From Eledone cirrhosa (lineage: Eukaryota): a stretch of DNA of 64,000 nucleotides. The translations under genes were made by a program, and so were the position numbers. Positions 18,190 through 19,079 of this stretch are shown piece after piece. Location of the stretch: positions 63,364,001 to 63,428,000 of the forward strand of contig OZ024743.1 in assembly GCA_964016885.1 (NCBI GenBank), in the 5' to 3' direction. Below the pieces are notes generated by a model. The model made no database searches, was not told the DNA's origin, and worked only from the letters and a program-made list of their open reading frames with translations. The first letter of the stretch is position 1. Each line of letters starts with the position of its first letter.

Positions 18190-18970
18190 AAAGGCAAGTT
18201 CTCTGTATTATGGAATATTGTCATTTTTTTTTAATCCTCGATCATCTTTGTGAGATTCTGATACACGAGACTGACCTTCACCACATCATCCCACATTTTC
18301 CTAGGCCTTCCCCATCCTTTGACTTTGTGCAGTCTGCATTTCTTTATGCAGCTGTCACCCTTCATACGTATCATATGTTCATACTATCACATTTTCCTCT
18401 TCTGCATGCTGCAACCAAAGCCTCTGATGCTCAGTTTTCCTCTTAGACCATTCATACTACAATTACACATCCATTGAAGCATATTTTGGTTCATTTCTTT
18501 CCAATTTCCACAAGTCCTCCATACACAAAGCTCAAGTTTCACTATCATGTTAGCATTGCCATTTACACACAAGCATCATACAATCCACCTTTCACTCTGA
18601 GGGAGAGACTCTCTGTAGCAAGCAATGGTAGTAGCTCCCTAAACTTTTTCTAGTCCATCCTCACTCTGGCTACTGTACTTTCAGAACACCCATTCCCACT
18701 GCTAATTTGGTCACCCAGGTAGCAGAAGCTGCCAACTATTTCTAGGGAGCCATCTGAGCAGTTGATAGGGTGTGTTTCCTGTAGGCTCTTGTTGCTTACT
18801 TCCCAAGTGCATTAGCCACACAAAGCCTCTACCATTTGTGTACCCATAGCTTATACTCTGTACATAAGATAGTATTTCTACTGACTCCTTTCCTGCCTAC
18901 TGAGCATGGTCATTTGCCTGAGGAAATCAGGGCTGTTTTCTTTTTTTACTCACTAGGACTTGGTCTTGCT
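18190..18970 (-). pseudogene. Old diverged RTE LINE fragment ending at the satellite junction
   Basis: Minus strand reads (A)KTK-VLVSKKEN...PCSVGRKGVSRN.ILC...FCYLGDQISSGNGCSESTVARVR...GRPRKMWDDVVK, homologous to the 22913-25030 ORF; breaks exactly at TGGTCTTGCT/(TA)n. Confidence 0.85.
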
Positions 18971-18996
18971 ATATATGTATATATATATATAGCAAG

Positions 18997-19035
<39 letters not shown>

Positions 19036-19048
19036 ATATAGCAAGACC

Positions 19049-19079
<31 letters not shown>

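Follow-up and report, generated by a model that had tools for sequence, protein, structure and literature searches.

A locus-private punctuated (TA)n array in Eledone cirrhosa with a traceable donor for its core in an adjoining LINE fragment

The origin of minisatellite and satellite units is hard to study: tandem repeats that stem from transposons are known, as are two models in which slippage gives rise to a minisatellite, and the initiation step is described as poorly understood (PMC3389668). The locus presented here, from Eledone cirrhosa (assembly GCA_964016885.1, contig OZ024743.1), raises the question of origin in a form in which the donor remains in place and carries a private mark: how has a (TA)n tract next to an old LINE fragment come to be punctuated by a repeated core that reads as the reverse complement of the LINE end? 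The window, i.e. the whole stretch of DNA that was analysed, is 64,000 nt long, and all coordinates refer to it unless a locus is named; L-numbers denote array or LINE loci that were fetched from the assembly.

The edge of the array is the place where donor and product meet. The sequence TGGTCTTGCT occupies positions 18961-18970, with the (TA)n beginning at 18970; read as its reverse complement, the LINE end at 18962-18969 gives the 8-nt core of the array, GCAAGACC, and the longer unit AGCAAGACCA matches the reverse complement of 18961-18970 exactly, as the initial annotation had claimed. The window contains 216 forward and 16 reverse copies of AGCAAGACCA, the first of the reverse copies being the flank itself. 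The donor site, TGGTCTTGCTA (18961..18971, plus strand), is homologous to TGGTCTTTGCTA in the relatives of the LINE and one T shorter, and the LINE's own TA dinucleotide at 18970-18971 merges into the (TA)n. The first TA spacer, 22 nt long with one G, and the first unit, the one-mismatch variant GCAAGAAC at 18992-18999, together form the hairpin partner of the donor site (18970..18999, plus strand); the earliest perfect core is found at 19041. The junction is not an assembly slip, because contigs from three public runs of one sample, possibly the same sample as that of the assembly, span 18717-18975 gaplessly with 0-1 differing letters and continue for 47 letters; assembly error is ruled out for this interval, the contig support being for the junction and not for the array interior. 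Four of the six runs listed were compared, and the fourth, a reduced-representation run, has no depth at the junction.

The donor lies in an old, decayed LINE fragment on the minus strand (18170..18971; BLAST extent 18170/18246-18971), the upstream-most remaining bases of which adjoin the (TA)n, and which is 71-76% identical to its relatives elsewhere in the assembly (full-length hits). On the label of the initial annotation and the short tandem 3' tails that mark RTE elements, both the donor and the inserted LINEs are putatively RTE-type. Among the 29 LINE relatives that were fetched, 16 reach the homologous column, the other 13 being omitted because they end earlier or align poorly; the relatives encode N-L/M-A-K-T-K-V-L-V-S, or decayed forms of it, at this column, while the window copy is frameshifted at the donor, two single T's being missing from TTT runs. 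The reading of the donor as in-frame reverse transcriptase AKTK codons is thus right for the LINE family but not for the copy in the window. The one-T-short form GGTCTTGC occurs in none of the 16 relatives, 11 of which have kept the three-T form, and is common to the donor copy and the array alone; since 0/16 relatives have this shortened form, the core most likely comes from the LINE copy in the window. In 1,194 nt of one relative (L013), the real core has a single site within one edit of the 11-nt donor, which is the homologous column; only 14 of 3,000 shuffled cores have any such site. The unit is homologous to an element at its own locus, as in transposon-derived minisatellites, on the evidence of the homologous column in 16 relatives. 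Both the shared shortened form and the shuffle test support the earlier claim of capture from the abutting LINE end, and in our judgement the core was very likely captured from this flank.

The edge would be a junction, and not a birth site, if the core had arisen elsewhere and a deletion, sealed by microhomology, had brought an inverted array unit against the old LINE. Several features are in keeping with such a history: array units adjoin inserted elements at other junctions (22680 and 41655), the donor differs from the LINE relatives by its two single-base losses, within the window, a BLAST search to the right of the array does not recover the upstream part that the LINE lacks, and AGCAAGACAA, with 9 of the 10 bases of the unit, is present at 22579, 34906 and 49196, in the 3' untranslated parts of young LINEs. 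These look-alikes, however, are inexact and lie away from TA, and the rarity with which shuffled cores match the old LINE, together with the single site of the real core at the homologous column, makes this history improbable.

The core in its TA context is private to the locus. The 20-mer TATATAGCAAGACCATATAT has 207 forward and 15 reverse exact matches in the whole assembly of 2,995,841,428 bases and the same 207 and 15 in the window alone (222 of the 222 genome-wide matches), and it is on this equality of counts that the privacy of the array is based; the 10 kb on either side of the window contain none. The initial annotation had proposed such a genome-wide count, naming arrays of the same core at unlinked loci as the outcome that would speak against a local birth; no such array occurs among the exact matches in the 3.0 Gb, and a dispersed satellite family is rejected.

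The array itself spans 18969-49325, i.e. 30,357 nt, in agreement with the ~30 kb first ascribed to it, but the TA array blocks (those of 40 nt or more) amount to 13,914 nt and the core-bearing ones to 11,644 nt; the rest of the span consists mostly of inserted mobile elements, which take up about half of the 30 kb. Counting as core-like every unit in TA context with up to two mismatches, we find 272 units, of which 233 are exact and 39 are variants, with 248 oriented one way and 24, including the flank copy, the other way. The unit is roughly 39 nt long and is composed of 8 nt from the element and a variable (TA)n spacer with a median length of 31 nt, so that of the fixed core and variable spacer first described, the spacer is confirmed and the core is not fixed, given its 39 variants and the 24 of 272 units in the other orientation.

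The way in which these variants are distributed bears on how the array has grown. Adjacent units share the same minor variant in 23 pairs, against 0.92 expected, and both are inverted in 18 pairs, against 1.93 expected (256 pairs in each case; neither value is reached in 10,000 shuffles); the lengths of neighbouring spacers are autocorrelated (rho 0.22, p 0.0005, 247 pairs), marked spacers are clustered in local runs, and the variants GCAACACA, GCAAGACT and ACAAGACC form runs of their own. Because variants, orientations and spacer lengths cluster locally, we conclude that units have been copied from neighbouring units; the run tests show the head-to-tail arrangement and local homogenisation that characterise transposon-derived minisatellites. 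At least four separate inverted runs lie inside the array, and since they show that orientation has changed after birth, the founding orientation can be read only with some uncertainty. Two side observations concern single blocks. Two spacers of an inverted block retain a C on the plus strand, as if cores might flip singly, this being one event that could be due to chance; and at 48354-48631, about 11 successive units carry a second core, GCAACACA, to which GCAACACC is the one-step intermediate and which appears as a variant that is taking over the end of a block.

These runs also decide on the telomerase-like reiteration that the initial annotation had suggested, in which each unit would be made anew by fold-back onto the flank as template. 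Such a process would account for the dominant orientation, inverted to the flank, as well as for the near-constant core and the variable spacer. A single template, however, would not yield the runs of three different variants, and variant cores, marked spacers and orientations occur both in runs and in a duplicated higher-order segment; cores are also found up to 30 kb from the donor, past several inserted elements. Because variants and orientations occur in runs, reiteration off the flank is unsupported, and we regard it as most improbable; the 23 same-variant pairs contradict the suggestion, unless it was meant for the first few units.

Mobile elements sit inside the array with array on both sides of them, and the left part of the locus already shows the pattern. 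Array block 1 (18970..19790, plus strand; 29 units including the donor site), with two inverted units within the duplicated higher-order segment, is followed by a 607-nt inserted repeat element (19791..20397), the same end of which adjoins TA arrays at L113 and L141. This unclassified element of about 600 nt, the end of which repeatedly adjoins (TA)n (L113:4405, L141:4624 and L127:3619), is a candidate TA-targeting repeat. After an array block of 11 units (20398..20953, plus strand) come two young, 5'-truncated LINE copies with (GAT)n tails (20954-22688 and 22806-25361, plus strand), 89% identical to each other and separated by a 3-unit array block, and then the largest array block, with 73 units (25717..29603, plus strand), an inverted-unit run at 27560-27830 and marked spacers in local runs. 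A core-free block at 29933..32202, 2.3 kb of pure A/T in the form of phase-shifted (TA)n/TAA, is enclosed by a small repeat element in two copies, diverged and inverted to each other, and the end of this element also borders TA arrays in L046, L083 and L107. The palindrome that these copies form (29604-29932 against 32203-32447) was considered as a fold-back product and rejected, its arms being 86-88% identical and the same element bordering TA arrays elsewhere.

Further to the right, an inserted element at 33189-34709 and 36567-36833, with a 363-aa minus-strand frame that has no Pfam match and with an inverted partial terminal copy, is possibly a second Penelope-like element. A young, 5'-truncated LINE copy (34805..36195, minus strand), which shares 92-93% identity with those at 20954 and 22806 and has a PHD match, is followed by a block of mostly inverted variant units of GCAAGACT (36196..36566, minus strand) and by an array block of 70 units (36834..39842, plus strand) with an inverted run at 38469-38740. 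Next to it are three truncated LINE copies (39843-40317 on the plus strand, 40331-41662 and 41797-42942 on the minus strand), with a 3-unit block between the last two, and an element with a 711-aa open frame (43152..46244, plus strand) and an inverted terminal copy of about 195 nt. A Pfam search of the 711-aa frame gave no match, while its look-alikes in the Atlas carry HTH_animal and GIY-YIG on 26-100% of members, from which we infer that the element is Penelope-like; the palindrome of 43152-43346 and 45946-46135, likewise rejected as a fold-back product, is the terminal copy of this element. The array closes with a block of 63 units (46245..48631, plus strand) that ends in the run of GCAACACA, and with a truncated LINE copy and the last core unit (48632..49325, plus strand; LINE at 48632-49294, unit at 49308-49315).

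The only Pfam domains of the LINEs are RVT_1 and PHD: the region 22802-25027 matches both (RVT_1 with E 1.5e-31), and a PHD finger occurs just after the reverse transcriptase domain in the LINE frame at 22802-25027, 35436-36191 and 42096-42938, an arrangement that is not unique to these copies, as clusters with RVT_1 and PHD exist in the Atlas. Two different LINE copies are truncated against (TA)n, at 42942 and 18969, at points of the element that lie about 11 nt from each other, and the younger junction, at 42942, ends in GACC like the core, which may reflect microhomology with the core or may be due to chance.

How the first unit came to be inverted is the remaining part of the question. We consider it probable that a single snap-back templated insertion of the SD-MMEJ type, in a break of the TA tract, founded the array, which unit-to-unit copying and the insertion of mobile elements then enlarged. 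In SD-MMEJ, snap-back synthesis gives inverted repeats and loop-out synthesis direct ones (PMC2943611); inserts templated from the flank by Pol-theta are about 10 bp long, primed by a single base and error-prone, with snap-back as a minor class (PMC5068794); and breaks in TA repeats are channelled into MMEJ, with short templated duplications (PMC13645644). Snap-back founding is favoured because the core is private, the mark of the LINE copy is shared, the units next to the donor, like 248 of all 272, have the opposite orientation to it, and the hairpin is stable; the second inverted capture, at L062 (below), speaks for it as well. The initial annotation had the first unit, about 20 nt on, form a hairpin with the flank: the predicted DNA hairpin of flank and first unit (-11.7 kcal/mol) is better than 200 of 200 shuffles, while the unit that forms it is a mismatch variant, and not the exact core, behind the 22-nt spacer. 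Two signatures of snap-back SD-MMEJ are found at the edge, i.e. an insertion that forms an inverted repeat with junction-side sequence (the core with 18962-18969) and an inverted primer repeat, supplied by the self-complementary (TA)n spacer, which pairs in the predicted fold.

The proposed course of events starts from what is seen at the edge, where (TA)n follows directly on the TA dinucleotide with which the old LINE fragment ends. A break or a stalled end in the TA tract would then leave a 3' end that folds back in the self-complementary TA and extends for about 9 nt over the LINE end; the extended end would detach and re-anneal in TA via a single A, as in snap-back SD-MMEJ or in templated insertion by Pol-theta. 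At the re-annealing end, one base (A) is common to the TA and the copied LINE strand, a match that cannot be told from chance. The core, now with TA on both sides, would be duplicated from neighbour to neighbour through unequal exchange or slippage, while point variants and flips, arising now and then, spread locally, a pattern that is seen and for which the mechanism is the putative part; the proposed last step, the arrival of LINEs, the Penelope-like element and small repeats, has left these elements within the array. Counter to snap-back are the first unit being a variant, the changes of orientation after birth, inverted matches not above chance across loci, an unexpanded allele not being seen, and two single-base losses within 12 nt of the donor, which exceed the common expectation from 0.027 indels per base relative to the LINE relatives.

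Fold-back is a plausible founding step, and direct capture followed by a flip in palindromic TA gives the identical product. In that sequence of events, which strikes us as rather unlikely, slippage or loop-out at the TA edge would have captured the core directly, one core would later have been inverted between palindromic TA, and the inverted form would have taken over. Flips are observed inside the window array and in other arrays, the window array has 23 units in the flank's own orientation, and direct capture is the commoner form genome-wide. It requires two events, however, and the units nearest to the donor are inverted; the microhomology between donor and TA is 1 nt on the inner side, against 2-4 nt by eye at the directly captured L046, L072 and L108.

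The genome at large offers many comparisons, as (TA)n arrays punctuated by a recurring core abound in it: arrays were searched for by degenerate two-core patterns, three of which gave 557, 1,162 and 340 overlapping matches, and loci were drawn from the first 100 matches listed for each pattern. A first set of 32 loci with informative cores, including the window locus, was chosen and bounded after the flanks had been seen. Here, 11 of 32 cores match the flank directly (null mean 1.63; reached in 0 of 1,000 shuffles), at least one of these calls, L081, being only a terminal array unit; 3 of 32, including the pre-selected window locus, match it in inverted form only (null 1.11; 98 of 1,000 shuffles). 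For a second, blind set the rule was fixed beforehand, and 23 of 29 loci were scored, one being dropped because its block overran the stretch and five because their commonest core was shorter than 5 nt. Direct matches number 5 of 23 (null 0.89; 2 of 2,000 shuffles), including L131, which resembles a terminal unit beside a LINE tail, and inverted ones 2 of 23 (null 0.77; 362 of 2,000 shuffles), of which L135, with three direct units followed by two inverted ones, turns out to be a direct capture that flipped internally, and L136 is an imperfect match. Cores without a flank match by rule make up 18 of 32 and 16 of 23, respectively.

Other copies of the flank show that directly captured cores are native to the flank at nine loci (L046, L072, L103, L108, L120, L066, L124, L132 and L135). 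A second inverted capture is found at L062, with core CGCAG and a flank shown to be native LINE sequence, and L078 has an 8-nt inverted match, with no second copy of its flank in 1.16 Mb; two inverted candidates seen by eye, L146 and L147, are uncounted, as their commonest core is below 5 nt under the blind rule. The initial annotation had asked whether, at other arrays, core and flank are reverse complements and had envisaged a satellite class defined by this rule; because inverted matches are not above chance in either survey and direct ones are, such a class is unsupported. Flank capture is a real genome-wide route, of which the inverted form exists as a minority that is not above chance as a class. 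We have also looked for fold-back at plain TA tracts, where 4 of 140 isolated tracts have inverted arms of at least 6 nt, against 0.8 expected (9 of 1,000 shuffles); we do not count this excess as support, because two of the four are one repeat element that occurs twice in L034.

Other arrays are built alike: over 10-20 kb, the same core is taken up again beyond inserted elements (e.g. L042 with its neighbours, L085 and L106). Larger than the window array is a GG-punctuated (TA)n that extends over at least 51 kb (C1:361139743-361191218, left edge in L100), and another punctuated array, L109-L110 (C3:39168198-39175463), has 20-nt cores and higher-order structure. Within the array of L046 (3347-5699), the core of which is a direct copy of adjoining LINE endonuclease codons, a repeat fragment of about 58 nt occurs twice, inverted, and the orientation of the core switches there. 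Two directly captured cores (L073:5249-5348 and L067:4046) are one base shorter than their flanks, which fits error-prone templated synthesis. At L058:4992 and L059:4922, about 1 Mb apart on C2, flank and core are shared and the structure of the array has diverged; the pair lends itself to dating how arrays change once duplicated.

A wider proposal, which we advance tentatively, is that locus-private (TA)n satellites may form a large class in the genome, in which repair synthesis at fragile TA has barcoded each array with 5-12 nt of the adjoining sequence, loop-out giving the direct and snap-back the inverted form; snap-back would go on flipping units, and the arrays would grow into retroelement landing pads of 10-50 kb. 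If this is true, the window locus is the clearest case of inverted founding, with donor, hairpin and product all visible. With many arrays in this genome having cores of their own, direct against inverted founding, the use of microhomology and growth become countable on natural events. A literature search, with subscription journals thinly covered, found no paper naming flank-captured punctuated (TA)n satellites, which is weak evidence of absence, and no function is indicated for the array.

In relation to known systems, the array resembles the products of SD-MMEJ and Pol-theta in its short insertion of about 10 bp copied from the flank, with putative single-base priming or re-annealing, and in the minority standing of the inverted form, which holds for our survey too (PMC2943611, PMC5068794); those products, as the two reports present them, are single repair scars in experimental animals, whereas here a putative scar between TA tracts has become the unit of an array of about 270 copies. 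Fragile TA repeats likewise break and are left with short templated duplications by MMEJ repair (PMC13645644; see also PMC12972899), but these reports concern somatic human and yeast systems, and the parts consulted describe no founding of a satellite. The slippage models, which turn unique sequence flanked by short repeats into a tandem unit, fit the direct captures elsewhere and the later growth of the window array; as outlined in that source, they give direct copies and no inverted founding unit (PMC3389668). The unique part of the unit comes from a transposable element at the same locus, as in the transposon-derived tandem repeats of the same source, although here the element contributes 8 nt of the ~39-nt unit and the rest is (TA)n spacer (PMC3389668). 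Elements that target TA microsatellites, such as MuTAnT, are known, and like them the mobile elements of the window are flanked on both sides by variable TA repeats, the insertions here, unlike MuTAnT, being LINEs, a Penelope-like element and small repeats (PMC4486113). Since TA fragility, templated insertion, slippage and insertion into TA are each known, the locus falls short of a new kind of system: it is a real, locus-private array with a traceable donor, built from known parts.
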